Assembly (NCBI RefSeq): GCF_055900595.2 | Contig: NZ_CM148325.1 | Length of the DNA: 64,000 nucleotides | Strand: one strand, 5' to 3' | Shown: one piece after another, positions 6,795-46,372 of the stretch | How the letters are laid out: the number at the start of each line of letters is the position of its first letter | Numbering within the stretch: position 1 is the stretch's first letter | Position numbers and translations under genes: made by a program | The notes under the pieces: model-generated | The model's input: only the letters and a program-made list of their open reading frames with translations | Database searches by the model: none | Told to the model about the DNA's origin: nothing

Positions 6795-8522
6795 TTAGCA
6801 GATTGTTTTTTCTTCAATGAACTTGTTAACCAGCGTCATTAACTCGTCCGTTGTCGGTTGAGCAAGAGCCTGCTCTGCTAACACCTTCGCATCTTCGAAG
6901 TTCGTGTTACGGATAATCTTCTTAATGCGCGGGATAGAAATGGCGCTCATAGAGAATTCGTCCAGACCCATCCCCAGCAACAGAAGTGTAGCACGTTCAT
7001 CGCCAGCAAGCTCACCACACATGCCAGTCCATTTGCCTTCAGCATGAGAAGCATCAATAACTTGCTTGATCAAGTTCAGCACGGACGGTGACATTGGCTG
7101 GTAAAGGTGTGAAATCATATCATTACCACGGTCAACTGCCAGAGTGTACTGCGTTAAATCATTGGTGCCGATACTAAAGAAATCAACTTCTTTGGCTAAA
7201 TGACGTGCAATTGTTGCGGCCGCTGGTGTTTCCACCATTACGCCGATTTCAATTGACTCGTCAAACGCTTTACCTTCGTCGCGCAGTTCCTGTTTGTAGA
7301 TTTCGATCTCTTTGCGCAGTGCACGCACTTCTTCAACAGAGATGATCATCGGGAACATGATGCGCAATTTACCGAAAGCAGAGGCACGCAGGATAGCGCG
7401 GAGCTGATCGCGCAGGATCTCTTTACGATCCATCGCGATACGGATAGCGCGCCAGCCGAGGAACGGGTTCTCTTCTTTCGGGAAGTTCATGTATGGCAGC
7501 TCTTTGTCGCCGCCGATGTCCATGGTACGAACGATAACCGCTTGTGAGCCACACGCTTCAGCTACTGCTTTGTAAGCAGCAAACTGTTCTTCTTCAGTGG
7601 GCAGCGCGTCGCGGTCCATGAACAGGAACTCAGTACGATACAGACCAACGCCTTCAGCGCCGTTACGCTCTGCACCTTCAACGTCACGAACCGTACCGAT
7701 GTTAGCGCACACTTCTACCTGGTGACCGTCCAGCGTAATAGCTGGCAGATCTTTCAGTTTAGCAAGCTCTGCTTTTTCAGAAGCCACTTGCTCCTGAACA
7801 GCGCGCATTTTATCAATAACTTCGTTGGTTGGATTGACGTAAACCTGATTATTTACGGCATCCAGAATCAGATAGTCGTCATTTTTCACCTGAGAGGTGA
7901 CGCTACCGGTACCCACGATAGCAGGCAGTTCCAGAGAACGCGCCATGATAGAGGTGTGGGAAGTACGGCCACCCGCGTCGGTGATGAAACCCAGCACCTT
8001 CTTCAGGTTCAGCTGTGCGGTTTCGGACGGCGTCAGATCAGCGGCAACCAGAATGACTTCATCCTGAATGGCGCTCAGGTCGATAATCTTCAGGCCCAGG
8101 ATGTTGCGCAGCAGGCGCTTACCGATATCACGTACGTCAGCCGCACGCTCTTTCAGGTATTCATCATCCAGCTCTTCCAGGGCAGAAGCCTGACCTTCGA
8201 TAACTTCATGAGCAGCTGCGTCAGCTGTCATGTGCTTATCTTTAATCAGGGCTATGATTTCCTGCTCCAGCTCCTCATCTTCGAGTAGCATAATATGCCC
8301 TTCAAAGATGGCTTCTTTTTCTTCACCGAACGTTTCACCAGCTTTCGTTTTGATCGTTTCCAGCTGGGCTGATGCCTTGGCACGACCGCTCAGAAAACGT
8401 TCAACTTCCTGATCAACCTGGTCGGCAGAAATTTTTTTCCGGTCAATGACAATTTCGTCTTCTTTCAGAAGCAGAGCTTTACCGAAAGCGATACCCGGGG
8501 ATGCTAAAATGCCTGAAATCAT
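6795..8522 (-). CDS. ptsI: PTS Enzyme I (phosphoenolpyruvate-protein phosphotransferase)
   Basis: 575 aa, recognisable EI sequence; ptsH-ptsI-crr operon. Confidence 0.97.
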
Positions 8523-30459: not shown

Positions 30460-31716
30460 CTAAACGTTATCGTGGGGTGGCTGTTGCTTCGGACGATTGA
30501 CCATCATCATCGGCTTACCGGCTAATAACAGCCATGCAGGAAGCATGACGATACAGAGCAGCGGTAGCAATGTGGTGTTAGGGACAACAACCGCAGCCAT
30601 AAATAGACTTAACCAGCCATCGCGTGTTACCACCAGCACGATGCCGAGAATAGCGCAGGAAACGGTTATTGCCGCCGGGACAGCGGGAACGTGCTCATGT
30701 AGCATCAATCCTAATGCCACGCCGACAAACACTGCCGGGAAGATTCGCCCACCGCGAAAGCCGCTGGCGGCAGCAACCACGAGAGCGGCAAGTTTAATCA
30801 CTGCCAGCAAAAAGTAATCGCTGGTGCTGAAAGCCTGATTTGCCACCATCTGCTGCATCTCATCCAGCCCTTTAAATAGCGAAACCGGTCCAGCAATAAC
30901 CCCCAGAATACCGAGAATAAATCCGCCCACTCCCAGCATTAGCACCGGATTTTTAATCTGATGCATCATCGCGTGCAACCGTGGCAGACACCATACGGCA
31001 ACCATCCCTGCTGCGATGGCAATCGCCGCCACAATTGCACCGCTGAGAATATCGGTCATCTCCATCTGCCCATAATGCGCAATGGGCAGTGAAAAATGAG
31101 GATGGAAAAATAATCCGGTAGTAAGTGCACCAGCTGCTGCGGCCATTAACGGCGCAAAGAGACGGTCCCATAGCGGAACCTCATTACTGCCATTTAAGGT
31201 TTGCGAAAATATCAACGCCGCCGCAACAGGTGTGCCAAACAGCGCGCCGATGGTTCCGGCAGAGGCTAAAATAGTCCACTCCATTCGGTTGACGCGCGGT
31301 AACAGACGAGCGCCAATGGCGACGGCAAGGGCGATATTGACGGTCATGATCGGATGTTCCGGCCCCAGGCTGACGCCGCCAGCAAGACCGAGAATTAATG
31401 CTACGATAAGTCCTGGTAGCGCAGAGGGCGGAACGGGTGCGCCGATCAGCGGTTCACAGGCGGGGTCTGGTCCAGCATGCCCCTGGCTGAAACGGATAAC
31501 CAACCCCACCGCAATACCCGTTAGCGTTAATATGGCGATGATCCAGAAAGGTGAATCCTGGGCTATTCCCAGAGTTCCCGGCAGTCGTTGCCAGAGCAGA
31601 GTCTGTAATACCGAGGCGATTTTCATCACCACAATCAGAATAAGACTGGACGCAATCCCAATTGCCACGGCGGGGAGTGATAATAACAACATGGTTCTGG
31701 CTCGCGGATGGAGCAT
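30460..31716 (-). CDS. yfeO: Putative ClC-like ion channel YfeO
   Basis: 418-aa polytopic membrane protein with G/A-rich helices typical of voltage-gated chloride channel family. Confidence 0.9.
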
Positions 31717-31919
31717 GGTCTATTCCTTATGCGGGGTCAGATACTTAGTTTGCCCAGCTTGCAAAAAGGCATCGCTGCAATTGGTGCTGAAACGATAAAG
31801 TAATTGTGTGACCCAGATCGATATTTACAGGGAGCCTGCCTTTCCGGCGTTGTTGTTATGCCCCCAGGTATTTACAGTGTGAGAAAGAATTATTTTGACT
31901 TTAGCGGAGCAGTTGAAGA

Positions 31920-32885
31920 ATGACAAAGTATGCATTAGTCGGTGATGTGGGCGGCACCAACGCACGTCTTGCTCTGTGTGATATTGCCAGTGGTGAAATC
32001 TCGCAGGCTAAGACCTATTCAGGGCTTGATTACCCCAGCCTCGAAGCGGTCATTCGCGTTTATCTTGAAGAACATAAGGTCGAGGTGAAAGACGGCTGTA
32101 TTGCCATCGCTTGCCCAATTACCGGTGACTGGGTGGCAATGACCAACCATACCTGGGCGTTCTCAATTGCCGAAATGAAAAAGAATCTCGGTTTTAGCCA
32201 TCTGGAAATTATTAACGATTTTACCGCTGTATCGATGGCGATCCCGATGCTGAAAAAAGAGCATCTGATCCAGTTTGGTGGCGCAGAACCGGTCGAAGGT
32301 AAGCCTATTGCGGTTTACGGTGCCGGAACGGGGCTTGGGGTTGCGCATTTGGTCCATGTCGATAAGCGTTGGGTAAGCTTGCCAGGCGAAGGCGGTCACG
32401 TTGATTTTGCGCCGAATAGTGAAGAAGAGGCCATTATCCTCGAAATACTGCGTGCAGAAATTGGTCATGTTTCGGCAGAGCGCGTGCTTTCTGGTCCTGG
32501 GCTGGTGAATTTGTATCGCGCGATTGTGAAAGCCGACAACCGCCTGCCAGAAAATCTCAAGCCAAAAGATATTACCGAACGTGCGCTGGCTGACAGCTGC
32601 ACCGATTGCCGCCGCGCGTTGTCGCTGTTTTGCGTCATTATGGGCCGTTTTGGCGGCAATCTGGCGCTCAATCTCGGGACATTTGGCGGCGTGTTTATTG
32701 CCGGTGGTATCGTGCCGCGCTTCCTTGAGTTCTTCAAAGCCTCTGGTTTCCGTGCCGCATTTGAAGATAAAGGGCGCTTTAAAGAATATGTCCATGATAT
32801 TCCGGTGTATCTCATCGTCCATGACAATCCGGGCCTTCTTGGTTCCGGTGCACATTTACGCCAGACCTTAGGTCACATTCTGTAA
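31920..32885 (+). CDS. glk: Glucokinase
   Basis: 321 aa; N-terminal ROK/glucokinase ATP motif [14 protein letters not shown]. Confidence 0.97.
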
Positions 32886-33103
32886 ATCCTTCCTGTTATA
32901 TCGGGAGATAACTCTCCCGATAATCTTTTAAATCAAACAGTTAATTCAATTTTTCTTTGTGTCCCCTCACAAGGCCGACCTGCGTCACACTTCCGTACAG
33001 CGGGATTAATTCTCCAGTAAATGCATTATTTGTCTGGTAACGGCGATTTGTTTTGCACGTTCATAATTTCACTCGTCAACTATCACCGAACGAGGAATTA
33101 ACG

Positions 33104-33430
33104 ATGAGTAAGAAACTGATTGCCTTATGTGCCTGCCCAATGGGCCTGGCTCACACCTTTATGGCCGCTCAGGCGCTGGAAGAAGCGGCGGTAGAAGCCG
33201 GTTATGAAGTGAAAATTGAAACCCAGGGTGCGGACGGCATCCAGAATCGTCTGACCGCGCAGGATATCGCCGAAGCGACCATCATCATCCACTCCGTGGC
33301 GGTTACCCCGGAAGATAACGAACGTTTCGAATCACGCGACGTTTATGAAATCACTTTGCAGGACGCAATTAAAAACGCTGCGGGCATCATCAAAGAAATC
33401 GAAGAGATGATTGCCGCTGAACAACAGTAA
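33104..33430 (+). CDS. fryB: PTS fructose-like EIIB component FryB (start trimmed to MSKKLIAL)
   Basis: 108 aa with EIIB-Fru-type CxxMG active-site cysteine context (ALCACPMGLAHTFMAA). Confidence 0.9.
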   Translation: MSKKLIALCACPMGLAHTFMAAQALEEAAVEAGYEVKIETQGADGIQNRLTAQDIAEATIIIHSVAVTPEDNERFESRDVYEITLQDAIKNAAGIIKEIEEMIAAEQQ

Positions 33431-33451
33431 TATTCGACAGGGATAATTGTT

Positions 33452-34699
33452 ATGGCCATTAAAAAACGCAGTGCAACCGTTGTGCCTGGCGCATCCGGTG
33501 CGGCAGCGGCAATTAAGAATCCGCAGGCCTCTAAAACCAGCTTCTGGGGTGAACTCCCGCAGCATGTGATGTCAGGGATTTCACGCATGGTGCCGACCTT
33601 AATTATGGGCGGTGTGATCCTCGCTTTCAGCCAGCTGATTGCTTATAGCTGGCTTAAAATTCCTGCGGATATCGGCATCATGGATGCGCTTAATAGCGGG
33701 AAATTCTCCGGTTTCGACCTCTCCTTACTGAAGTTTGCCTGGCTGTCACAGTCCTTTGGTGGCGTACTGTTTGGCTTTGCCATACCGATGTTTGCCGCTT
33801 TTGTGGCGAACTCCATCGGCGGCAAACTGGCGTTCCCGGCTGGTTTTATCGGCGGCTTGATGTCTACCCAGCCTACGCAACTGCTGAACTTCGATCCCAG
33901 CACGATGCAATGGGCGACCTCTTCGCCGGTGCCGTCCACCTTCATTGGTGCCCTGATTATTTCTATCGTTGCGGGTTACCTTGTGAAGTGGATGAACCAG
34001 AAAATCCAGTTACCGGATTTCCTGTTAGCGTTCAAAACCACATTTTTGCTACCGATTCTTTCCGCCATTTTTGTCATGCTGGCGATGTACTACGTCATCA
34101 CCCCCTTTGGTGGCTGGATTAACGGTGGTATCCGTACCGTGCTGACCGCCGCGGGTGAGAAGGGCGCGCTGATGTATGCGATGGGTATCGCAGCAGCGAC
34201 CGCCATCGACCTCGGTGGTCCAATCAACAAAGCAGCAGGTTTCGTTGCCTTTAGCTTTACCACCGACCACGTATTACCGGTTACCGCGCGTTCAATCGCT
34301 ATCGTTATTCCGCCGATAGGCCTGGGTCTGGCGACCATTATCGACCGTCGTTTAACTGGCAAACGCCTGTTCAACGCTCAGCTTTATCCGCAGGGTAAAA
34401 CCGCGATGTTCCTTGCTTTTATGGGGATCAGTGAAGGTGCGATTCCGTTTGCGCTGGAAAGCCCCATCACCGCTATTCCGTCCTATATGGTTGGCGCGAT
34501 TGTCGGCTCAACCGCCGCTGTCTGGCTGGGTGCAGTTCAATGGTTCCCGGAATCTGCTATCTGGGCATGGCCGCTGGTCACTAACCTCGGTGTCTATATG
34601 GCGGGGATCGCGCTGGGAGCAATCATTACTGCGCTGATGGTGGTATTCCTGCGTCTGATGATGTTCCGTAAAGGCAAATTGTTAATCGATAGCCTGTAA
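33452..34699 (+). CDS. fryC: PTS fructose-like EIIC component FryC
   Basis: 415-aa polytopic membrane protein of EIIC-Fru family. Confidence 0.9.
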
Positions 34700-34713
34700 G
34701 AAGGAAAATCCAG

Positions 34714-35799
34714 ATGACATTACTCGCTTCGCTGCGCGACTGGCTTAAGGCACAACAACTGGATGCAGTGCTTCTCTCCTCACGGCAGAACAAACAACCG
34801 CATCTGGGGATCTCCACCGGATCAGGCTATGTGGTGATTAGCCGTGAAAGTGCGCACATTCTGGTGGATTCGCGCTATTACGCGGATGTAGAAGCCCGCA
34901 CGCAAGGCTACCAGCTGCATTTGCTTGACGCGACGAACACGCTTACCACTATCGTCAATCAAATCATTGCCGATGAGCAGTTGCAAACGCTCGGTTTTGA
35001 AGGCCAGCAGGTAAGTTGGGAAACCGCGCACCGCTGGCAGTCTGAACTCAATGCGAAACTGGTAAGCGCCACGCCGGATGTGCTGCGGCAAATCAAAACG
35101 CCAGAGGAGGTGGAGAAAATCCGCCTCGCCTGTGGGATTGCCGATCGCGGTGCAGAGCATATTCGCCGCTTTATTCAGGCGGGGATGAGCGAATGCGAGA
35201 TTGCTGCTGAACTGGAGTGGTTTATGCGCCAGCAGGGCGCAGAAAAAGCCTCTTTTGACACCATTGTCGCCAGCGGCTGGCGTGGGGCGCTGCCGCACGG
35301 CAAAGCCAGCGACAAGATTGTTGCAGCGGGCGAGTTTGTCACTCTCGATTTCGGTGCGCTGTATCAGGGCTACTGCTCTGATATGACGCGCACCTTGCTG
35401 GTGAATGGCGAAGGGGTGAGCGCCGAATCTCACCCACTGTTTGATGTGTATAACATTGTCCTGCAGGCACAGCTCGCGGCAATCTCCGCGATTCGCCCCG
35501 GCGTGCGCTGCCAGCAGGTTGACGACGCCGCGCGCCGGGTCATTACAGAAGCCGGTTATGGCGACTATTTCGGTCATAACACCGGTCATGCTATCGGCAT
35601 TGAAGTCCATGAAGATCCGCGTTTTTCACCGCGGGACACCACGACGCTACAGCCAGGGATGTTACTGACCGTGGAGCCGGGGATTTATTTGCCAGGGCGA
35701 GGGGGCGTGCGCATCGAAGATGTCGTGCTGGTTACCCCGCAAGGCGCGGAAGTGCTCTACGCCATGCCAAAAACAGTGTTGCTCACGGGAGAGGCATAA
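34714..35799 (+). CDS. ypdF: Xaa-Pro aminopeptidase YpdF (M24 family)
   Basis: 361 aa with M24 metal-ligand pattern ([13 protein letters not shown], ...VEPGIY...). Confidence 0.9.
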
Positions 35800-36836
35800 T
35801 GGATTTATCGCTATTAAAAGCGTTGAGCGAGGCAGATGCGATCGCCTCCTCGGAACAGGAAGTGCGGCAGATCCTGCTGGATGAAGCGGATCGCCTGCAA
35901 AAGGAGGTGCGATTTGATGGTCTGGGATCGGTGCTGATCCGCCTCAATGAATCGACAGGTCCGAAGGTGATGATCTGTGCGCATATGGACGAAGTGGGAT
36001 TTATGGTGCGTAGCATCTCCCGCGAAGGGGCGATTGATGTCCTGCCAGTTGGCAATGTGCGCATGGCTGCCCGCCAGCTTCAGCCAGTACGGATCACTAC
36101 TCGTGAAGAGTGCAAAATTCCCGGTTTGCTCGATGGCGAGCGGCAGGGGAATGACGTCAGCGCCATGCGCGTGGACATTGGTGCGCGCTCGTATGACGAA
36201 GTGATGCAGGCAGGTATTCGTCCGGGCGATCGTGTCACGTTTGATACCACTTTTCAGGTTCTCCCTCACCAGCGAGTGATGGGTAAAGCCTTTGATGACC
36301 GCCTCGGTTGCTACCTGCTGGTGACGTTACTACGTGAGCTGCACAACACCGAGCTGCCTGCGGAAGTGTGGCTGGTGGCAAGTTCCAGCGAAGAGGTGGG
36401 ATTACGCGGCGGGCAAACCGCCACCCGCGCGGTGTCGCCGGACATCGCCATTGTGCTTGATACCGCCTGCTGGGCGAAAAACTTTGATTATGGCGCGGCT
36501 AACCATCGCCAGATTGGTAACGGCCCGATGCTGGTGTTAAGCGACAAGTCGCTGATTGCGCCGCCAAAACTTACCGCGTGGATCGAAACCGTGGCGGCAG
36601 AAATTGGCGTGCCGTTGCAGGCCGATATGTTCAGCAACGGCGGAACGGACGGCGGGGCGGTGCATTTAACCGGCACTGGCGTACCCACAGTGGTGATGGG
36701 GCCAGCAACCCGCCACGGACATTGCGCCGCATCGATTGCCGACTGCCGCGACATTTTGCAGATGCAGCAGCTTTTATCTGCCCTTATTCAACGTCTTACC
36801 CGTGAGACGGTTGTTCAACTGACGGATTTCAGATGA
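35799..36836 (+). CDS. ypdE: Aminopeptidase YpdE (M42 family)
   Basis: 345 aa, M42 peptidase-like; start overlaps ypdF stop. Confidence 0.9.
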
Positions 36837-36860
36837 TCTCCTGATTAACCCGGAGCGGTT

Positions 36861-39356
36861 ATGTTAACGATTCAATTTCTCTGTCCTTTGCCAAACGGTC
36901 TGCATGCTCGTCCGGCGTGGGAACTTAAAGAGCAGTGCAGCCAGTGGCAAAGTGAAGTCACCTTTATTAATCATCGCCAGAACGCCAGGGCTGATGCCAA
37001 AAGCTCGCTGGCGCTGATTGGCACCAGCACCTTATTTAATGACAGTTGCAGCTTGAACATTAGCGGCAGCGATGAAGAGCAGGCGCGGCGCGTGCTGGAA
37101 GAGTATATCCAGGTGCGCTTTATCGACAGCGACAGCGTTCAGCCGACGCAGGCAGAACTGACGGCGCATCCGCTGCCGCGTTCATTAAGCCGCCTTAACC
37201 CGGATTTACTGTACGGCAATGTGCTGGCAAGCGGCGTCGGCGTGGGTACGCTGACCCTGTTACAAAGCGACAGCCTCGACAGTTACCGGGCGATCCCCGC
37301 CAGTGCGCAAGATTCCACCCGGCTGGAGCACAGCCTGGCAACGCTTGCCGAGCAACTGAACCAGCAATTGCGCGAGCGTGACGGCGAAAGCAAAACCATT
37401 CTCAGCGCCCATTTGTCGCTGATTCAGGATGATGAATTCGCGGGCAATATCCGTCGCCTGATGACAGAACAACATCAGGGGTTGGGTGCAGCGATCATCA
37501 GCAATATGGAGCAGGTTTGCGCCAAACTTTCTGCTTCTGCCAGTGATTATCTGCGCGAACGTGTTAGCGACATTCGCGATATCAGCGAACAGTTACTGCA
37601 TATCACCTGGCCGGAACTGAAGCCGCGCAACAATCTGGTGCTGGAAAAACCGACTATTCTGGTAGCCGAGGATTTAACCCCAAGCCAGTTTTTGAGCCTC
37701 GATTTAAAAAATCTTGCGGGCATGATTCTGGAGAAAACCGGGCGCACCTCGCATACCCTGATTCTGGCCCGTGCCTCGGCGATCCCGGTTTTGAGCGGCC
37801 TGCCGCTGGATGCGATCGCGCGTTATGCCGGGCAACCGGCGGTGCTTGACGCCCAGTGCGGCGTGCTGGCGATTAACCCGAATGACGCGGTGAGCGGTTA
37901 TTATCAGGTTGCGCAGACGCTGGCGGATAAACGTCAGCAACAACAGGCGCAAGCTGCCGCGCAGCAGGCCTATTCCCGTGATAACAAGCGCATTGATATC
38001 GCGGCGAATATTGGCACCGCTCTTGAAGCGCCTGGCGCGTTTGCCAACGGCGCGGAAGGCGTTGGACTGTTCCGTACCGAAATGCTCTATATGGAGCGCG
38101 ACAGTGCGCCGGACGAACAGGAACAGTTTGAAGCATACCAACAGGTGCTACTGGCGGCGGGCGACAAGCCGATTATTTTCCGCACGATGGACATCGGCGG
38201 CGATAAAAGCATTCCTTACCTCAACATTCCCCAGGAAGAGAACCCGTTCCTCGGCTATCGCGCGGTACGTATTTACCCGGAATTTGCTGGTCTGTTCCGC
38301 ACTCAATTGCGGGCTATTTTGCGCGCTGCCAGTTTCGGTAATGCCCAGTTAATGATCCCAATGGTCCACAGCCTCGATCAGATCTTATGGGTGAAGGGCG
38401 AGATCCAAAAAGCGATCGTTGAGCTTAAGCGCGATGGCCTGCGTCATGCAGAGTCGATTACGCTGGGTATCATGGTGGAAGTACCGTCGGTGTGCTACAT
38501 CATCGACCACTTCTGCGATGAGGTCGATTTCTTCAGTATCGGTTCTAACGATATGACCCAGTATCTGTATGCGGTCGATCGTAATAACCCGCGCGTATCG
38601 CCGCTGTATAACCCGATTACGCCATCGTTCCTGCGCATGTTGCAGCAGATTGTTACCACTGCGCATCAGCGGGGTAAATGGGTAGGTATTTGCGGTGAAC
38701 TGGGCGGTGAAAGTCGTTATCTGCCGCTACTGCTTGGACTGGGCCTGGATGAGCTGAGTATGAGTAGCCCGCGTATTCCGGCGGTGAAAAGCCAGCTTCG
38801 TCAACTGGATAGCCAGGCGTGTCGGGAATTGGCTCGTCAGGCATGTGAATGCCGCAGTGCGCAGGAAATTGAAGCGTTACTCACCGCCTTTACGCCGGAA
38901 GAAGACGTTCGCCCACTGCTGGCGCTGGAGAATATCTTTGTTGATCAGTCATTTAGCAATAAAGAGCAGGCGATCCAGTTCCTGTGCGGCAACCTTGGCG
39001 TTAACGGGCGTACTGAACATCCGTTTGAGCTGGAAGAAGATGTCTGGCAGCGGGAAGAGATTGTTACTACTGGCGTTGGTTTTGGCGTGGCGATCCCGCA
39101 CACCAAATCTCAGTGGATCCGTCATTCCAGTATCAGCATTGCCCGGCTGGTGAAACCGGTTGACTGGCAGTCAGAAATGGGCGAAGTCGAACTGGTGATT
39201 ATGCTGACGCTGGGCGCTAACGAAGGGATGAATCATGTGAAAGTCTTCTCGCAGCTGGCGCGTAAACTGGTGAATAAAAACTTCCGCCAGTCGTTGTTTG
39301 CCGCGCAAGATGCACAAAGCATCCTGACGCTGCTGGAAACGGAATTAACCTTCTGA
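36861..39356 (+). CDS. fryA: PTS multiphosphoryl transfer protein FryA (HPr-like, EI-like and EIIA-Fru-like domains)
   Basis: 831 aa; N-terminal HPr-like (LHARPAWEL), central Enzyme I homology closely paralleling ptsI in this same window, C-terminal EIIA domain. Confidence 0.92.
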   Translation: MLTIQFLCPLPNGLHARPAWELKEQCSQWQSEVTFINHRQNARADAKSSLALIGTSTLFNDSCSLNISGSDEEQARRVLEEYIQVRFIDSDSVQPTQAELTAHPLPRSLSRLNPDLLYGNVLASGVGVGTLTLLQSDSLDSYRAIPASAQDSTRLEHSLATLAEQLNQQLRERDGESKTILSAHLSLIQDDEFAGNIRRLMTEQHQGLGAAIISNMEQVCAKLSASASDYLRERVSDIRDISEQLLHITWPELKPRNNLVLEKPTILVAEDLTPSQFLSLDLKNLAGMILEKTGRTSHTLILARASAIPVLSGLPLDAIARYAGQPAVLDAQCGVLAINPNDAVSGYYQVAQTLADKRQQQQAQAAAQQAYSRDNKRIDIAANIGTALEAPGAFANGAEGVGLFRTEMLYMERDSAPDEQEQFEAYQQVLLAAGDKPIIFRTMDIGGDKSIPYLNIPQEENPFLGYRAVRIYPEFAGLFRTQLRAILRAASFGNAQLMIPMVHSLDQILWVKGEIQKAIVELKRDGLRHAESITLGIMVEVPSVCYIIDHFCDEVDFFSIGSNDMTQYLYAVDRNNPRVSPLYNPITPSFLRMLQQIVTTAHQRGKWVGICGELGGESRYLPLLLGLGLDELSMSSPRIPAVKSQLRQLDSQACRELARQACECRSAQEIEALLTAFTPEEDVRPLLALENIFVDQSFSNKEQAIQFLCGNLGVNGRTEHPFELEEDVWQREEIVTTGVGFGVAIPHTKSQWIRHSSISIARLVKPVDWQSEMGEVELVIMLTLGANEGMNHVKVFSQLARKLVNKNFRQSLFAAQDAQSILTLLETELTF

Positions 39357-39358
39357 CG

Positions 39359-40216
39359 TTAGCCCTGAAAACGGGCGCTGTACTCTCCCGGCGTCAGGCC
39401 AAACTGACGCCGGAAGACGCGACAAAAATAGTCGCTGTCCGGAAAGCCGCAACGCTGCGCCACTTCATGAATCGACAGATGATATTTCTGCAAAATCATC
39501 CTCGCCTTCGCCATTCGCACCCAACGCACATATTCGATAAAACGCATTGTTCCATGCTGCGCAAACAGTTTTGACAGATGATTGGGCGTGATATTAAAAA
39601 ACTGCGCCACGTTCTCACGGGTGAGCGGCTGGGCATAATTATCCTGAACCCAGTTACAAATGCTGTGATAGAGAAAATCGCCGCGCGGCTGCGAATTACC
39701 CGGCGGCATATTCACCACGTTGCGGCAAAGATGCAGCAAACTTAACACCAGCGGCTGAATGATATTCTGCTCCAGCGGCGAACGGCTAAGATGGGTGAGG
39801 GCAGTAAGCATTGCTTCACCTTCGCCGCGTTGCAGGCTGGGAAGTTGGATCTGGCGAGCAGGATGCAACAACGACGTGGTGCGGCTATCGTAAAACGATA
39901 ACCCAAGCCAGGTCGGCGCGAATACCAGGCTTAACAGCATTACCGGTTTGTTGTTGACCGGTAAATTAGCCGCGCGCGCTGGAATAAACAGCATTTCTCC
40001 TTCCACCATACGCTGCTGCTTTGCTTCCAGCAGGTTGCCGTATTCGCCGCGTAGCACGATATCCAGACGGGGAAAATCAATACATAAACTGCCCACCGGC
40101 AATGAGGCAGGCTGGCTGGCAAACCAGACGCGCCCCAGTAGTTGCGGGTTAAGCACCAGGCCGCTGAACAGATCGGCGAAAAATTGTTGATCGGCGGGCA
40201 AGCCTGTTGCTTTCAT
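39359..40216 (-). CDS. ypdC: AraC-family transcriptional regulator YpdC
   Basis: 285 aa with C-terminal AraC-type HTH. Confidence 0.9.
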   Translation of the reverse strand: MKATGLPADQQFFADLFSGLVLNPQLLGRVWFASQPASLPVGSLCIDFPRLDIVLRGEYGNLLEAKQQRMVEGEMLFIPARAANLPVNNKPVMLLSLVFAPTWLGLSFYDSRTTSLLHPARQIQLPSLQRGEGEAMLTALTHLSRSPLEQNIIQPLVLSLLHLCRNVVNMPPGNSQPRGDFLYHSICNWVQDNYAQPLTRENVAQFFNITPNHLSKLFAQHGTMRFIEYVRWVRMAKARMILQKYHLSIHEVAQRCGFPDSDYFCRVFRRQFGLTPGEYSARFQG

Positions 40217-40227
40217 GAAAATCCCGA

Positions 40228-40962
40228 TTACAGATGCATTAACTGCCTGAATTCTTTTACTTTGCTACGGCTGACCGGTACTTCAAAATCCAGATCTTTC
40301 AGTCGCAGAATGTAGGTGTTATTAAACCACGGTTCGATTTCGCGGATTTTGTTCAGATTGACACAAAATGAGCGATGGCAGCGGAAAAAATGTGACGGCG
40401 GCAGCTTGCTGCAAAACTCGGTAATGTTCATCGGCATTACGTAGGATTCACGCCGCGTATAGACAAAGGTCATTTTCTCGTGCGCTTCGGCGTAATAGAT
40501 ATCGTTAATTGGCGTGACGATGATGCGCTCATCTTTCACCAGATTAATGGTGTCATTCTCACGCATTACCGTCGTGGCAGGCGTACTGCTGGTCTGCTGT
40601 TGTTGCCAGGCCGCTTCCAGCTTTTGCAGCATTCCTGTAATGCGTGATTCCTGATACGGTTTGAGAATGTAGTCAAACGCCTCCAGTTCAAACGCTTCTA
40701 CCGCATGTTCTTTCCAGGCGGTGATAAATACAATAAACGGTTTATGAGCAAACTGGCTGATGTTTTGCGCCAGCAACACGCCATCCAGCGACGGAATATT
40801 GATATCCAGAAAAATGGCGTCGACGCGGTTATGCTGCAAAAACTTCAACACGTCCAGACCATCGTCAAAGGTGCCGACAATCTCCATCTGGCTGTGCTCT
40901 TTAATCAGCCAGCTCAGTTCCTGTTGTGCCAGGAATTCGTCTTCAACAATGATGACTTTCAC
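40228..40962 (-). CDS. ypdB: LytTR-family response regulator YpdB (GTG start; track ORF begins 18 nt upstream at TTG)
   Basis: Receiver domain with D-D-K pattern plus C-terminal LytTR DNA-binding domain; 244 aa from GTG with GGAG 6-9 nt upstream. Confidence 0.88.
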   Translation of the reverse strand: MKVIIVEDEFLAQQELSWLIKEHSQMEIVGTFDDGLDVLKFLQHNRVDAIFLDINIPSLDGVLLAQNISQFAHKPFIVFITAWKEHAVEAFELEAFDYILKPYQESRITGMLQKLEAAWQQQQTSSTPATTVMRENDTINLVKDERIIVTPINDIYYAEAHEKMTFVYTRRESYVMPMNITEFCSKLPPSHFFRCHRSFCVNLNKIREIEPWFNNTYILRLKDLDFEVPVSRSKVKEFRQLMHL

Positions 40963-40976
40963 AATATCACTCCGGC

Positions 40977-42674
40977 TCAAAGCAATAACGTAGCCTGTGA
41001 GGCGACAGGGGTGCGTTGGTTAGGAATGTAAAACGCAATTTCCGTTCCTGGTTCCAGGCGGCGGATATGCAGCCCCTCGCCATACAATAACTTCACGCGA
41101 TGATGGACATTCAGCAGGCCAATTTTATTGCCCGGCATTTCGTTCGCTTCGACCCGCTCAATGACTTTTGGATCGATGCCGTGCCCGGTATCTCGCACCG
41201 CAATGCGTACCCGATTACCGCACTCTGCAACGCTGATGGTGACAACGCCTTTACCTTTGCAAGGCTGAATACCGTGGACAATGGCGTTTTCCACCAACGG
41301 CTGGATCAGCAGGCTGGGAATGCAGCAATTGACCTCTTCATCAATATCATAGATAACCGTCAGCTTGTCGCCAAAGCGGGCCTGCTCAATGGCAATATAG
41401 TCTTTAATTTGATACAGCTCTTTTTTGATATCGATTTGCTCATCGTCTTTTAATTCAATGTTATAGCGTAGATAACGCGACAGATTAAAGATTAACTGGC
41501 GAGCGGTATCCGGATTCAGACGGATCGACGATGAGATAGCATTCAGAGCATTAAACAGGAAATGGGGATTAATTTTGCTTTGCAGAGCGCGAAGCTCTGC
41601 CTTATTTGCCATTTCACGTAGCTGCTCGGCGCGTGAAACCTCCAGTTGGGTGGAGATGATTTGCGACAGACCGACAGCCATTTCCTGTAATGACGAGGTG
41701 ATCTGATGCGCGTGGCAGTAGTAAATTTTCAGTGTTCCTGTCACCACGCCTTTCTCCCACAATGGGATCACCAGCATCGAATGAATCTCTGGCGTGCGGT
41801 GGGCTTCATCATTATTTTTAATAATGATTTTTCCGTAATTCATTGCCTGACGCGTTGTTGGGCTAATGAAGTCATCGCCATTCTGATAGTTGTGTTCACC
41901 TACGCCAACATAGGCCAGCACATGATCGGTGTTGGTAATCGCTACCGCATCGGCGTGAATATCATCGCGGATAATTTCACAAACTTTGCGTAATGACTCG
42001 CTATTGACATGGCGAAACAGCGGCAGCGTTTTGTTGGCGATATCCAGCGCCAACTTGGCCTGCCGCGCGGCGCTGGCCTCTTTTTCGCCCTCAACGCTTT
42101 GTACCAGCAACACAATAAAGCCGATACAAACGCTGCCGAGGATCATCGGAATCCCGATTTTGGAGACGATATCAATCCCCAGTGCAGTGGTGGGCGCCCA
42201 GACAATCACCAGAATCATCGTCAACGTTTCACATAACATGCCACCGAGAATACCGACGCGCCAGCGCTGTGCTTTGGGGATTTTCAGGTTGATCCAGCCT
42301 GATATGCAACCCGCGAGAATACTGGTGATAAAGCACGGAATTGCCGTCACGCCGCCGATGTCAATTAAATAACGGTGAATACCCGCAATCACACCGGTAA
42401 TGATGCCTACCCACGGGCCAAATAGAATTCCGCCTGACATCACCGCGATAATGCGCACATTAACCAGCGAGCCTTCTACGGGCACGCCGGACCAGGTGCT
42501 GAACAGGGCGAACAGCGAGAAAATGGCGGTAACGGCGAGCAGCTCTTTTGGGGAGTGCGCCGACTTGTGCAACAGTTCGCGAAACAGGCGGATACGGATG
42601 AGAAAGAACAGGCAGATAAGCATTAACGCTGCCCGATCGAAGACCGCCAGCAGCATATTGAATATTTCGTGCAC
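40977..42674 (-). CDS. ypdA: Sensor histidine kinase YpdA (LytS-type: 5TM-LytS membrane domain, GAF, HisKA_3/HATPase)
   Basis: 565 aa; membrane N-terminus, conserved His region ([11 protein letters not shown]), ATPase G-box (DTGHGI). Confidence 0.92.
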
Positions 42675-43050
42675 GGGTGACTCTGAATAAGGATTAAACC
42701 TCTATGATAGGTAACCTGAAGGCCGATGACCAGCAGGCCGTTTTTGAGGAAAGACCACAACTTTAAAAGGGGATTGAAAGTTAAATGGTGTATTAGCAAT
42801 GCATCTCTTGATAATGCATATCTGTTTGGTAAATTTATTGAAATTATAATGTTAATAGATTGGGTGGTAATTTTCTTGTTAGCGTAGATAAATTTCCTGT
42901 TTTTAAAGCGGAGTTCCTCATTTAAGGCTATTAACAAAAATGTTCTAAAACGCTGGACAGACAGAAATTAATCAGGCTATTTTCAAAACAGCCACCATCG
43001 TGGCAGCGTCGCTCGGACGGTCCGGGCGCTCACGTTAATCTGAGGAAATT

Positions 43051-44289
43051 ATGGCTGACACTCGCCCTGAACGTCGCTTTACGCGTATTGATCGTCTCCC
43101 ACCCTACGTTTTTAACATTACCGCTGAACTGAAAATGGCTGCGCGTCGGCGCGGCGAAGATATTATCGATTTCAGTATGGGTAACCCGGACGGTGCGACC
43201 CCGCCGCATATCGTCGAAAAATTATGTACGGTGGCCCAGCGACCGGACACGCATGGTTATTCCACCTCGCGTGGTATTCCGCGGTTACGTCGCGCCATTT
43301 CCCGCTGGTATCAGGATCGTTACGACGTCGAGATCGACCCGGAATCAGAGGCTATCGTCACCATTGGCTCGAAAGAGGGGCTGGCGCATCTGATGCTGGC
43401 GACGCTGGATCACGGTGACACTGTACTGGTGCCTAATCCAAGCTACCCGATTCATATTTACGGCGCGGTGATTGCCGGGGCGCAGGTACGCTCAGTGCCG
43501 CTGGTGGACGGTGTCGATTTCTTCAACGAACTGGAACGCGCCATTCGCGAAAGTTATCCGAAACCGAAGATGATGATCCTCGGCTTTCCCTCGAACCCAA
43601 CCGCGCAATGCGTGGAACTGGAATTCTTTGAGAAGGTTGTAGCGCTGGCGAAACGCTACGATGTGCTGGTGGTCCATGACCTGGCCTATGCCGATATCGT
43701 CTACGATGGCTGGAAAGCGCCGTCAATCATGCAGGTGCCAGGTGCACGCGATGTGGCGGTCGAGTTCTTTACGCTGTCGAAAAGCTACAACATGGCGGGC
43801 TGGCGTATCGGCTTTATGGTCGGTAACAAAACGCTGGTCAGCGCGTTGGCACGTATTAAAAGCTATCACGATTACGGCACCTTTACGCCGTTGCAGGTGG
43901 CGGCGATTGCGGCACTGGAGGGCGATCAACAGTGCGTTCGCGACATTGCCGAACAGTACAAACGCCGCCGTGATGTACTGGTTAAAGGGCTGCATGAAGC
44001 GGGCTGGATGGTCGAAATGCCGAAGGCTTCGATGTATGTCTGGGCGAAAATCCCGGAACCATATGCGGCCATGGGCTCACTGGAATTTGCCAAGAAACTG
44101 CTTAACGAAGCGAAGGTCTGTGTCTCTCCAGGGATTGGCTTTGGCGACTACGGCGACACCCATGTTCGCTTTGCGCTGATTGAAAACCGCGATCGTATTC
44201 GCCAGGCGATTCGTGGAATTAAAGCGATGTTCCGTGCCGACGGTTTACTACCCGCCAGCAGCAAACATATTCACGAAAACGCGGAATAA
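43051..44289 (+). CDS. alaC: Glutamate-pyruvate aminotransferase AlaC (YfdZ)
   Basis: 412 aa class-I aminotransferase with PLP-lysine context ([12 protein letters not shown]). Confidence 0.95.
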
Positions 44290-44309
44290 ACACCATCGCC
44301 AGAAATGCA

Positions 44310-44336
44310 AACAGGAGCCAGATGGCTCCTGTTTTT
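44310..44336 (+). terminator. Rho-independent terminator of alaC
   Basis: 10-bp stem aacaggagcc/ggctcctgtt, loop agat, followed by TTT. Confidence 0.5.
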
Positions 44337-44353
44337 CATTGCACAGTTTGCTT

Positions 44354-44425
44354 TTAGATCATCAGGGCAAAAGTACCGGCCCAAACGATGACCATAAAAG
44401 AAATGCCCATAAAGAAATATTTCAC
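44354..44425 (-). CDS. ypdK: Small membrane protein YpdK (23 aa, GTG start)
   Basis: Minus strand reads GTG-AAA-TAT... translating to MKYFFMGISFMVIVWAGTFALMI with GGAGAG about 8 nt upstream; too short for the ORF track. Confidence 0.55.
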   Translation of the reverse strand: MKYFFMGISFMVIVWAGTFALMI

Positions 44426-44712
44426 TTTACATCTCTCCGCGTAATTACTGTTACGCCTGAATGACTTCATTACACCTGATACAGTGAGTTGACACCGGGC
44501 AAAACGACATTGAAAGTCCGTATTTTACCGTGGGCATCACCCCAGAATTCTGAGCTAAACTGCTCCAGACGGCGCTAATGTACGCCTAAAACTGAAACGA
44601 GACAAGAGGCATTTTCTTATTTACTTTTAGTAACTTACAGGTGTCTCATATCGGCGACAGTTTAATTTCTGACGGTAATAATTAGAGATTCAGCGAAGGA
44701 AAAAACCTTAAG

Positions 44713-44747
44713 AAAAAAGCCATAAAAACCATGAGGTTATTATGGCT
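44713..44747 (-). terminator. Candidate rho-independent terminator of lpxP
   Basis: On minus strand: stem agccata/tatggct followed by TTTTTT, about 35 nt 3' of lpxP stop. Confidence 0.45.
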
Positions 44748-44779
44748 GATTTGAGGAGGGAAAGAGTAAGAGCAATTTG

Positions 44780-45700
44780 TTAAATGTATAACGACGATTC
44801 TCCCACCGGGCGCGTTTTAAAGCGACGGTGGATCCAGAGGTACTGCTCAGGTGCGCGCATAATCTCTTTCTCGATAATCTTGTTCATATAGGCAGCGGCT
44901 TGATTTTCATCTGCCGGGTAGCCTTCCATTTCAGGGGTGATGAACAACCGATATCCGCTGTAATCCGCTTTTCTGACCATCGTTACGGTCAACATGGCTG
45001 CGCCAGAGAGACGAGAGAGGACATAGGTGCCATTGGTTGTGGCAACATTTTCTACCGCAAAGAACGGTGCGAAGGAGCTGCCTTTACGACCATAATCCTG
45101 ATCGGGAGCAAACCATACGGCTTCACCTTTCTTCAGCGCACCGACAATACCGCGCAGATTATTTCTGCCGATCATCGCTTTGTTAGAGCGCATGCGACCA
45201 CGGGTCTGCACCCATTCCATCAGCTGATTATTATGCGGACGATAGGTGGCCATCATTGGCTGACATAGTCCCATCACGCGGCCGCCCAATTCCAGCGACA
45301 TAAAATGGACGCCGACAACCATCACGCCACGATTTTGCAGTTGTGCGCGTTTGAGGTTATCCAGCCCTTCAACATCAAACCATTTACGTACGCGACTGTC
45401 GGGCCAGAACCATGCCATGCCGGTTTCTACCAGCGCCATGCCGAGTGAACGAAAGTTTTCGGCAATCATCTTCTCGCGCTCTTCAGCAGAATGCTGTGGG
45501 AAACAAAGTTCCAGGTTCTTACGGGCGATAGATTCACGACGTTTCAGGAATGGTCGCGCCATCGTGCCGATACGCGTGCCGAGAAAACAGAGAACAGGGT
45601 AAGGAAGCTGTACCCAAAGCCAGAGTACACCAAGCCCAAACCATGTGAGCCAGTAGCGAGGATGTAGAAACTCGCGGGAAAATTTGCATTTTGGAAACAT
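44780..45700 (-). CDS. lpxP: Lipid A palmitoleoyl-ACP acyltransferase LpxP (cold-induced LpxL paralog; start trimmed to MFPKCKF)
   Basis: 306 aa from trimmed start; LpxL/HtrB-family lauroyl/palmitoleoyl acyltransferase sequence. Confidence 0.9.
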   Translation of the reverse strand: MFPKCKFSREFLHPRYWLTWFGLGVLWLWVQLPYPVLCFLGTRIGTMARPFLKRRESIARKNLELCFPQHSAEEREKMIAENFRSLGMALVETGMAWFWPDSRVRKWFDVEGLDNLKRAQLQNRGVMVVGVHFMSLELGGRVMGLCQPMMATYRPHNNQLMEWVQTRGRMRSNKAMIGRNNLRGIVGALKKGEAVWFAPDQDYGRKGSSFAPFFAVENVATTNGTYVLSRLSGAAMLTVTMVRKADYSGYRLFITPEMEGYPADENQAAAYMNKIIEKEIMRAPEQYLWIHRRFKTRPVGESSLYI

Positions 45701-46053
45701 AGTTACCTTCTGTAGATACGAATTGTTGTATCGCAGAAGATTCCATGTCGACAGCGGTACACTCAATTGGTTGGGCCATCATGTACGACAATGGTTCCTG
45801 TAAAGAGTGTAAAGACTAGTCAGGACATAACCACGAGGAGCATGAATGCGGTGCTTTTACTTTATCACTGGCTGACTGCTTTCAGCTACTGATTATTTAT
45901 CGTGCAAAGTAAATATTTTTTTCGCACATTACAGTCTTGCATTTAACGTGCTGTTTTCATTAATACTTAGCAAAAATTGCCAGAGGTTAAGGATTGTCTT
46001 ACTATTAAAGTGACTGAAGTTACAGGTTTTTTAGCGCGGCAGGAGGTTGAGCT

Positions 46054-46296
46054 ATGATTTATTTATGGATGTTTCTCGCCCTGTGTATTGTCTGCGTAAG
46101 CGGATACATCGGTCAGGTACTGAACGTGGTCTCGGCGGTCTCTTCTTTCTTCGGCATGGTGATCCTCGCTGCACTCATTTACTACTTCACCATGTGGTTA
46201 ACTGGCGGTAATGAACTAGTGACGGGGATATTTATGTTTCTTGCCCCGGCTTGTGGCTTGATGATTCGCTTTATGGTGGGGTATGGCAGGCGGTAG
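46054..46296 (+). CDS. yfdY: Small inner-membrane protein YfdY (DUF2545)
   Basis: 80 aa, two predicted TM helices; conserved position. Confidence 0.75.
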   Translation: MIYLWMFLALCIVCVSGYIGQVLNVVSAVSSFFGMVILAALIYYFTMWLTGGNELVTGIFMFLAPACGLMIRFMVGYGRR

Positions 46297-46372
46297 TAGT
46301 TCAGGATGGATCATTTGGGCAGGTGCTCACATCATCAACAGATATGATTGTTCACCTGCCATGTGACAGACG

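Follow-up and report, generated by a model that had tools for sequence, protein, structure and literature searches.

The fryBC-ypdFE-fryA operon of Escherichia coli and its relatives: a phosphotransferase system co-inherited with peptidases, with a possible mannose-type glyco-amino acid or glycopeptide substrate

In Escherichia coli, the MngA/MngB system couples a fructose-family phosphotransferase system (PTS) for 2-O-alpha-mannosyl-D-glycerate to a hydrolase that frees mannose 6-phosphate. Two further E. coli PTS operons, frvABXR and sgcXBCQAER, are orphans, each of which carries an M42 peptidase paralog (frvX and sgcX). In skin staphylococci and corynebacteria, Cys-Gly-(S)-conjugates are processed by a peptidase and then by a PatB/AecD C-S beta-lyase, which yields pyruvate and ammonia (PMC7385124). 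In the present study, we compared these systems with the fryBC-ypdFE-fryA operon in a 64,000-nt stretch of DNA (contig NZ_CM148325.1 of assembly GCF_055900595.2; hereafter the window). This operon, which encodes a PTS together with two peptidases, has been an orphan since the E. coli genome was first annotated. Gene content and synteny tentatively suggested that its substrate is a conjugate of a mannose-type sugar with an amino acid or peptide, which would be imported and trimmed in the cytoplasm, and that the operon is controlled by YpdC. The genes considered are listed below (aa, amino acids).

33104-33430, plus strand: fryB, PTS enzyme IIB (EIIB), 108 aa
33452-34699, plus strand: fryC, PTS enzyme IIC (EIIC), the substrate-specific permease, 415 aa
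34714-35799, plus strand: ypdF, M24B Xaa-Pro-type aminopeptidase, 361 aa
35799-36836, plus strand: ypdE, M42 aminopeptidase, 345 aa
36861-39356, plus strand: fryA, multiphosphoryl transfer protein (HPr, enzyme I (EI) and enzyme IIA (EIIA)), 831 aa
39359-40216, minus strand: ypdC, AraC-family regulator, convergent with fryA
6795-8522, minus strand: ptsI, 575-aa open reading frame (ORF), general Enzyme I; paralog of the central domain of FryA, outside the fry operon

The coordinates and the plus-strand orientation that a first-pass annotation had given for the five fry ORFs were confirmed from the ORF positions, and its tight operon was also observed: successive genes are separated by 21, 14, -1 and 24 nt, and the ypdF/ypdE junction reads TAATG, so that the ypdE start overlaps the ypdF stop by 1 nt. 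The ribosome-binding site of fryB is GAGGAA at 33093-33098. The same five genes are annotated by RefSeq in a 100%-identical genome and correspond to b2387-b2383 (fryB to fryA) of K-12, from which the operon differs in neither genes, order, lengths nor junctions, with a nucleotide identity of 94.6-97.9% and very few amino-acid changes. The locus was found in 5424 of 5426 complete E. coli genomes. It is the E. coli fryBC-ypdFE-fryA operon, previously annotated and orphan in function. In the RefSeq (PGAP) records, fryA carries the gene symbol 'ptsP' (window 36861-39356; L001 9962-12457; L numbers denote loci), and in the K-12 record it is called fryA; the ptsP symbol belongs to another gene, the nitrogen-PTS Enzyme I.

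Domains were assigned using Pfam and NCBIfam models with family cutoffs, which agreed with every gene name and domain call made in the first pass. FryB matched PTS_IIB (PF02302, 71.2 bits) and TIGR00829 (92.2 bits, cutoff 76.85), with the phosphorylatable Cys11 lying within CPMGLAHT. FryC matched PTS_EIIC (PF02378, 53.1 bits, cutoff 30.7), contained the GISEGAIPF motif and reached 157.2 bits against TIGR01427, marginally under the subfamily cutoff of 157.55. YpdF consists of Creatinase_N and Peptidase_M24 domains (NF007310, 815.5 bits, cutoff 393), retains all of its metal ligands (D212, D223, H292, E321 and E335) and is near-identical to the crystal structure PDB 5CNX, 'Aminopeptidase YpdF'. 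YpdE is a Peptidase_M42 protein (NF007421, 678.5 bits, cutoff 412) with an intact signature (H62/D64, FDDR, EE198-199, D221 and H306/H308), and it is near-identical to the crystal structure of its Shigella ortholog SF2450 (PDB 1YLO). FryA comprises five Pfam domains, namely PTS-HPr, PEP-utilisers_N, PEP-utilisers_mobile, PEP-utilisers_C and PTS_EIIA_2, and it scored 506.9 bits against TIGR01417 (cutoff 341.7); its EIIA part matched TIGR00848 (141.1 bits, cutoff 103.5) and PF00359 (111 bits). Its phosphorylation sites His15 (GLHARPA), His298 (GRTSHT) and His747 (GVAIPH) are kept, as is the conserved CGE cysteine. In their domains and motifs, the EIIB, EIIC and type 2 EIIA parts correspond to an Enzyme II complex of the PTS fructose-mannitol family. 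Residues 117-683 of FryA align with the whole of PtsI (39% identity, E = 2e-131), in accordance with the earlier claim that its centre is a ptsI paralog. Every phosphorelay residue of FryB and FryA and every peptidase metal ligand is therefore in place, and the N-termini of YpdF and YpdE read as those of cytoplasmic proteins.

YpdF has been described as a 'MP-, MA-, MS-, AP-, NP-specific aminopeptidase', a description quoted in PMC7939560, and YpdE is a dodecameric protein whose activity has been characterised (PMC3511314). The in vitro peptidase specificities of both enzymes, proposed as a check in the first-pass annotation, thus appear to have been determined already. Because the locus is annotated, structures exist for YpdF and the Shigella YpdE ortholog, and activities of both enzymes have been described, the feature itself is already known.

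Compared with frv and sgc, the fry operon shares the M42 paralog; the two differ from it in having other EIIC subfamilies (FrvB is 27% identical to FryC, and sgc is of the galactitol type), no M24 partner and no EI or HPr of their own. E. coli has three M42 enzymes (PMC3511314), and all three K-12 paralogs sit in PTS operons (frv, sgc and fry). Since M24 is also the usual neighbour of EIIC in most FryC-family loci (see below), PTS-adjacent peptidases are not a one-off: the peptidases called unusual in the first pass are indeed present, but the pairing itself recurs. The MngA/MngB system resembles the locus in its fructose-family PTS and, through the GH38 enzymes of FryC relatives, in a following enzyme that frees mannose 6-phosphate. 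In contrast to that system, the window has peptidases in place of a GH38 (no GH38 domain was found by Pfam in the five proteins), and FryC is not an MngA ortholog (27% identity; 101.7 bits against the MngA model NF007293, far under the cutoff of 763).

To place FryC within its family, we used a full HMMER search of 1.84 billion representatives, in which FryC proved to belong to a narrow subfamily. Taking one genome per species gave 80 FryC-family loci (50-100% identity); to label their ORFs, phmmer was run with proteins of the window and a small number of neighbouring proteins as queries. EIIC is immediately followed by an M24 gene in 61 of the 80 loci, an order that spans Proteobacteria, Clostridia and Negativicutes, and M42 comes next in 49 of the 61. 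GH38 takes the place directly after EIIC in 17 loci, and two loci are truncated. Thirty-seven loci belong to Enterobacterales, including Escherichia, Citrobacter, Salmonella arizonae and diarizonae, Kluyvera, Enterobacter, Lelliottia, Hafnia and Serratia; 34 of them share the E. coli gene order and group in a single EIIC clade, and the other three (L087, L088 and L090) carry an M20-type operon on a separate EIIC branch, with neither M42 nor fryA found among their labelled ORFs. The clostridial order, observed in Enterocloster, Hungatella, Caproiciproducens, Breznakia, Lachnospiraceae and Ruminococcaceae, is PRD regulator, EIIA, EIIB, EIIC, M24, M42 and 'aminotransferase'. In a second variant, M42 is absent and an M20 gene lies upstream (Clostridioides difficile, Geosporobacter, Caloramator, Pelosinus, Lucifera and Rahnella); the C. 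difficile locus is inferred to be CD2484-CD2491, mapped by gene order and annotation from PMC3510511. In complete loci of the peptidase type, one kind of second peptidase (M42 or M20) can stand in for the other, but a second peptidase is always kept. A homolog of the PRD-type regulator (HTH-Mga-PRD-EIIB-EIIA) occurs in 38 of 41 non-enterobacterial loci, covering both the peptidase and the GH38 operon types.

The enzymes of these relatives were then assigned by family models. The clostridial M24 proteins were nearest to the YpdF model (352/337 bits) and the M42 protein to the YpdE model (393 bits). The 'aminotransferase' is a PatB/MalY-family C-S beta-lyase (TIGR04350; 345, 340, 357 and 307 bits, cutoff 340), which lies after the peptidases in 24 loci, including one Enterobacterales metagenome-assembled genome (L045) in which it follows fryA. 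By TIGR01887 (329 and 310 bits, cutoff 208), the M20 protein is a dipeptidase of the PepV/Sapep type; against the Cys-Gly-3M3SH dipeptidase model it scored 181-217 bits, under the cutoff. Pairwise identities of FryC and M24 were correlated (r = 0.92; 0.87 among 26 non-enterobacterial loci), as were those of FryC and M42 (r = 0.90). Because these identities correlate, the EIIC-peptidase block appears to have been inherited together across phyla.

Three other observations were made on these loci. The genome labelled Chryseobacterium sp. 18061 (L035, CACSKA010000002.1) has an entire fry-ypdC locus of the enterobacterial type, whose FryC is 74% identical to that of E. coli and clusters with Pluralibacter; the assembly looks mislabelled or contaminated. 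Upstream of the fry operon in L045 (1889-8231), a second M24, two M20 peptidases and an Ldh_2-family dehydrogenase lie on the same strand and may form an extended peptide or amino-acid module. A linkage of RidA to the lyase was not used as evidence: RidA is near the operon in L004, and unrelated genes lie between in L051, L056 and L058.

The nearest FryC relatives that lack peptidases (50-62% identity) gave a signal about the sugar. They are coupled to full-length MngB-like GH38 enzymes, and the GH38 proteins of the 17 sister loci matched the MngB model over their full length at 616-927 bits, short of the 1138 bits set as the equivalog cutoff. A GH38-linked EIIC of Hungatella shares 62% identity with FryC over 415 residues, and GH38-type and peptidase-type EIICs interleave in the neighbour-joining tree. 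More distant EIIC relatives (40-44% identity) sit in operons with GH38 and GH13, joined by a glycerate kinase in two of three. On the peptidase side, a type I phosphomannose isomerase gene closes the operon in an uncultured Ruminococcaceae genome and in Caproiciproducens (L055 and L060), 41-43 nt past the lyase; it also follows the PatB lyase in Geosporobacter (L072), and in L081 and L084, from C. difficile and a related Clostridium, it stands divergently beside the operon. No other sugar-phosphate-processing enzyme was found with the peptidase-type loci, and no glycosidase lies beside the 61 operons of this type. Collectively, the GH38 sister loci, the interleaving and similarity of the EIICs and the linkage to phosphomannose isomerase point to mannose 6-phosphate as the likely sugar product of both operon types.

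We next consider regulation. The glk gene stops at 32885, and because a good terminator-like hairpin follows it, fry is transcribed from a promoter of its own. A scan for consensus sigma-70 promoters gave no hit upstream of fryB, and its overall count equalled the shuffle expectation. As the consensus scan was uninformative, phylogenetic footprinting was used, for which the 200 nt upstream of fryB were aligned from 20 Enterobacterales. A single conserved block was observed, from Escherichia to Hafnia, within otherwise unalignable DNA. The elements of this region are as follows.

32899-32922, plus strand: terminator-like hairpin after glk (10-bp stem with 5 G-C pairs, then a T-rich tail); upstream boundary of the fry unit
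32974-32989, plus strand: predicted CRP-like site, cCGA-N6-TCACAyTTC conserved, with a strong right half TCACA at 32985-32989
33005-33020, plus strand: direct repeat R1, ATTAATTCTCCAGTAA, predicted distal half-site for an AraC-type activator (YpdC)
33025-33040, plus strand: direct repeat R2, ATTATTTGTCTGGTAA, 20 bp after R1 and abutting a poor -35; predicted proximal activator half-site
33062-33067, plus strand: predicted -10 CATAAT; CCATAAT is invariant or nearly so in the 20 aligned Enterobacterales

A pattern derived from the repeats, ATTAWTTNTCYRGTAA, matches only R1 and R2 in the 64-kb window, a result that is circular for the match itself. A general repeat search did not report R1 and R2, which are too short and degenerate for it, and the repeat rests on cross-species conservation. 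Transcription is predicted to need YpdC on the two repeats and cAMP-CRP on the CRP-like site; with a start near 33074, the repeats would lie at about -69 to -34 and the CRP-like site would be centred at about -92.5. The predicted layout resembles that of araBAD-type promoters, in which the I1-I2 direct repeats for AraC are accompanied by an upstream CRP site: the fry repeats end by a weak -35, the CRP-like site lies about 93 bp before the inferred start, and an AraC-family gene is adjacent. The fry repeats differ in being 20 bp apart, as compared with 21 in araBAD. A sigma-54 promoter suspected by eye at about 33036-33056 was rejected for its wrong GG-to-GC spacing, and an Rfam scan of 31.5-43.5 kb (E <= 1) revealed no riboswitch, leader or small RNA.

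The candidate activator, YpdC, has HTH_18/HTH_AraC at its C-terminus only, and its N-terminal domain matches no Pfam family. In 29 Enterobacterales loci, some of them from genera that lack ypdAB, fry is flanked by the gene of a full-length YpdC ortholog (44-98% identity). In most of them ypdC stands tail to tail with fryA at a distance of 1-13 nt, and in L045 it is directly upstream of fryB; ypdAB lies beside fry-ypdC only in Escherichia, Citrobacter and Pseudocitrobacter. Because ypdC flanks fry in 29 loci regardless of ypdAB, YpdC is predicted to be a dedicated fry activator and not a functional part of the pyruvate-sensing module. Usually, ypdC is grouped with ypdAB (pyrSR), which sense pyruvate, an assignment that these results call into question. 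Outside Enterobacterales, the PRD-type regulator would fill this role in both operon types. The stops of fryA and ypdC are 2 nt apart on opposite strands (39354-39361), with no terminator-like hairpin between them, and each transcript should run antisense into the opposite gene.

From the observed gene content, catalytic residues, purifying selection, synteny and promoter blocks, we infer a substrate class, in vivo roles for the enzymes and a regulator. FryA, with its own EI, HPr and EIIA, would relay the phosphate of phosphoenolpyruvate to Cys11 of FryB, and FryC would import and phosphorylate the substrate. The latter would be a mannose-type glycoside, rather than free fructose, with an amino acid or a short peptide as its aglycone. 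The peptide part would be trimmed in the cytoplasm, where YpdF would cleave in front of Pro, Ala or Ser and YpdE, a broad-range aminopeptidase, would do the rest. In Clostridia and relatives, the PatB-family pyridoxal phosphate (PLP)-dependent beta-lyase would act on the sugar-bearing amino acid, and with the phosphomannose isomerase of five loci the products would be mannose 6-phosphate and then fructose 6-phosphate. In the window, the PatB lyase is absent from the operon, the fryA stop being followed after 2 nt by that of ypdC. Having neither lyase nor isomerase, the E. coli operon would therefore rely on enzymes encoded elsewhere or stop at the phospho-glycosyl amino acid. The first pass had already raised glycosylated amino acids or peptides as substrates, an idea that fits the co-inheritance of EIIC and peptidases across phyla together with the C-S beta-lyase and phosphomannose isomerase.

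A more specific form of this proposal, which we regard as distinctly unlikely, is that operons of the Fry family encode a previously unnoticed route for glyco-amino acids or glycopeptides of the O-mannosyl kind. Ser/Thr O-glycans are chemically prone to beta-elimination. Such substrates may be left over, as alpha-Man-Ser/Thr, from O-mannosylated proteins of fungi, actinobacteria or the host. The PTS would import the conjugate and phosphorylate its mannose at O6, and the M24 (Xaa-Pro) and M42 or M20 peptidases would trim it to 6-phosphomannosyl-serine or -threonine. The PatB-type PLP enzyme, instead of a glycosidase, would then free mannose 6-phosphate by beta-elimination, with aminoacrylate as the second product giving pyruvate and ammonia, and phosphomannose isomerase would feed the sugar into glycolysis. 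E. coli would have kept the permease, the peptidases and the dedicated regulator YpdC and lost the lyase. The elimination of mannose 6-phosphate from O-(6-phosphomannosyl)-Ser/Thr by the lyase is our most specific and least certain proposal.

Several points weigh against a mannosyl amino acid or peptide as the substrate. PatB enzymes are known as C-S lyases, an activity on O-glycosyl serine being putative, and we know of no natural mannosyl-S-cysteine compound. In the papers examined, no substrate has been reported for any FryC-family member. The identity correlations of FryC, M24 and M42 partly reflect species phylogeny, and the EIIC tree is a neighbour-joining tree without support values. 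The E. coli operon has neither the lyase nor the isomerase found in relatives, and because of this the pathway derived from Clostridia may not hold in E. coli. Chromatin immunoprecipitation with exonuclease digestion (ChIP-exo) detected no YpdC sites anywhere under the conditions used; this is expected for a ligand-free activator, yet it also counts against the prediction. In addition, CD2486-88 and CD2485 of the C. difficile ortholog are glucose-induced via CcpA (PMC3510511), which is unusual for a PTS of a secondary substrate.

Among the alternatives, uptake of a simple fructose- or mannose-like sugar or polyol fared best, with the peptidases as co-transcribed housekeeping enzymes that have no chemical link to it. 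The component family models name the PTS parts 'fructose-like', and CD2486-88 is regarded as a fructose PTS in the papers on C. difficile. Moreover, YpdF and YpdE cleave plain peptides in vitro as ordinary aminopeptidases (PMC7939560 and PMC3511314), which favours a housekeeping role and speaks against our own proposal. Against such a role, M24 recurs directly after EIIC in 61 of 80 loci from three bacterial groups, and its divergence tracks that of EIIC (r = 0.87-0.92). The swapping of the second peptidase without unreplaced loss argues in the same direction, and the only sugar-phosphate enzyme accompanying the peptidase type is phosphomannose isomerase. We therefore consider this explanation unlikely.

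The dipeptidase-PatB pathway for Cys-Gly-S-conjugates is the nearest documented logic, and there is an outside chance that the substrate is a cysteine S-conjugate, that is, a Cys-Gly or Cys thioether bearing a sugar-like group, from which a dipeptidase and then the PatB lyase would release thiol, pyruvate and ammonia. The enzymes of non-enterobacterial Fry-type operons belong to the same families: the lyase scores (307-357 bits) lie around the PatB cutoff of 340, and the M20 protein, besides being PepV/Sapep-like, also matches the Cys-Gly-3M3SH dipeptidase model, if under its cutoff. E. coli malXY is a further PTS paired with a C-S lyase. The combination of dipeptidase and lyase has been documented for the body-odour precursor Cys-Gly-3M3SH (PMC7385124). 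That pathway involves no sugar and takes up its substrate through the peptide transporter DtpT instead of a PTS, and a lyase is missing from the fry operon of E. coli. No natural mannose thioether of cysteine is known, and the sister operons with GH38, like the phosphomannose isomerase, indicate a common alpha-mannoside with an O-glycosidic bond. In C. difficile (CD3027-CD3030), a PTS of another family, the glucose type, is likewise paired with a MalY/PatB C-S lyase; there, malY is described as essential and as the gene most strongly induced in biofilms (PMC6143707). Such pairings may be a general unexplained theme.

The chance is slim that fry in E. coli is a silent remnant, or a regulatory phosphorelay without transport, kept by linkage. 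In its favour, there is no consensus promoter, YpdC binding was not seen by ChIP-exo, the lyase and isomerase of relatives are missing, and broken copies occur in single lineages. Against it, the ratio of nonsynonymous to synonymous substitution (dN/dS), calculated by the Nei-Gojobori method against K-12, E. whittamii, Citrobacter, Salmonella and Enterobacter, was 0.009-0.17 across all five genes and 0.009-0.117 for fryC, and FryC differs from that of K-12 by 68 nucleotide differences but only three amino-acid changes. The locus is present in nearly all complete genomes, as given above, and the promoter elements are conserved from Escherichia to Hafnia. In addition, a 48-bp in-frame fryA deletion in a BL21(DE3) derivative increased fitness after prolonged LB culture (PMC5364489), and therefore the Fry system is not inert in rich medium. 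The label 'cryptic' given in the first-pass annotation is thus not borne out, and decay of the operon is not supported, given strong purifying selection and intact catalytic residues.

The weakest alternative is an Amadori product (a fructosyl amino acid or peptide), raised as a variant in the first-pass annotation. A fructose-family PTS and a sugar-plus-amino-acid logic, with peptidases freeing the fructosyl amino acid, would suit it. However, neither the window operon nor the genes that recur around the 61 peptidase-type loci include the SIS-type deglycase or fructosamine kinase that defines the frl, gfr and fra pathways, and the linked sugar enzymes are a mannosidase and phosphomannose isomerase, so that this reading has only a faint chance.

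Irregular copies of the fry genes were also observed. The broken copies are a ypdE split into two ORFs in L014 (Escherichia sp. MOD1-EC7003) and a fryA split in L022 (Citrobacter amalonaticus S646), which could be real pseudogenes or sequencing errors. Some draft assemblies of E. coli/Shigella (P0072, P0012, P0014, P0023 and others) encode a FryC that lacks residues 120-155 in frame, including residues invariant in the family. This 36-aa deletion allele (P0072) was considered as a common sign of decay and rejected, the segment being kept in 5417 of 5426 complete genomes. In a few E. coli contigs (P0081, P0082, P0112 and P0085), EIIC is fused to Creatinase_N and M24 (657-688 aa) or to M42 (653 aa); these probably arose by deletion or read-through, given how closely the genes of the operon are spaced.

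With regard to the strain, only 8 of the 5426 complete E. coli genomes are at least 99% identical at the fry locus, and the next best reaches 97.4%. That fry is unusually divergent within E. coli was rejected by sliding identity: the whole 15.5 kb (30846-46346) is about 96% identical to K-12 (~95.8%), and therefore the divergence is a strain-lineage effect and not specific to fry. The region is 92-93% identical to representatives of Escherichia sp. E1V33 and E. whittamii, and the window strain seems, on sequence identity, to be a rare, deep-branching E. coli lineage. In the 100%-matching genome Z0117EC0005 (L002, NZ_CP098223.1 3335392-3349637), the genes from xapR to ptsI are 'frameshifted', three tRNA-Ala genes are present and IS421 lies beside nupC. 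The window has an intact ptsI (575 aa), two tRNA-Ala genes and no insertion sequence between pdeA and nupC. It therefore comes from a close relative of Z0117EC0005, and the Z0117EC0005 assembly probably contains local errors.

The new elements of the present study are the linkage of the FryC family to peptidases, lyase, isomerase and GH38, the linkage of ypdC to fry, and the conserved layout of the fryB promoter. In C. difficile, Fry-type proteins have been detected in cells and spores, CD2487 is up 14 h after mouse infection (bioRxiv 10.1101/598045), and Fry-type genes are up late in deoxycholate biofilms. These papers all call the locus a fructose PTS, and the peptidases and the lyase are not addressed in them. 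Since the C. difficile ortholog is expressed and one of its components is up in mouse infection, the substrate could matter for gut colonisation. If the O-mannosyl pathway were true, loss of the lyase in E. coli might also explain the benefit of the fryA lesion in yeast-extract medium. Collectively, fry is a core-genome E. coli PTS that costs a private copy of Enzyme I and HPr and is nevertheless under strong purifying selection, and the comparison with its relatives yields candidates for its regulator and site, its sugar (mannose), its aglycone class (amino acid or peptide) and, in relatives, a PLP-dependent beta-elimination step.

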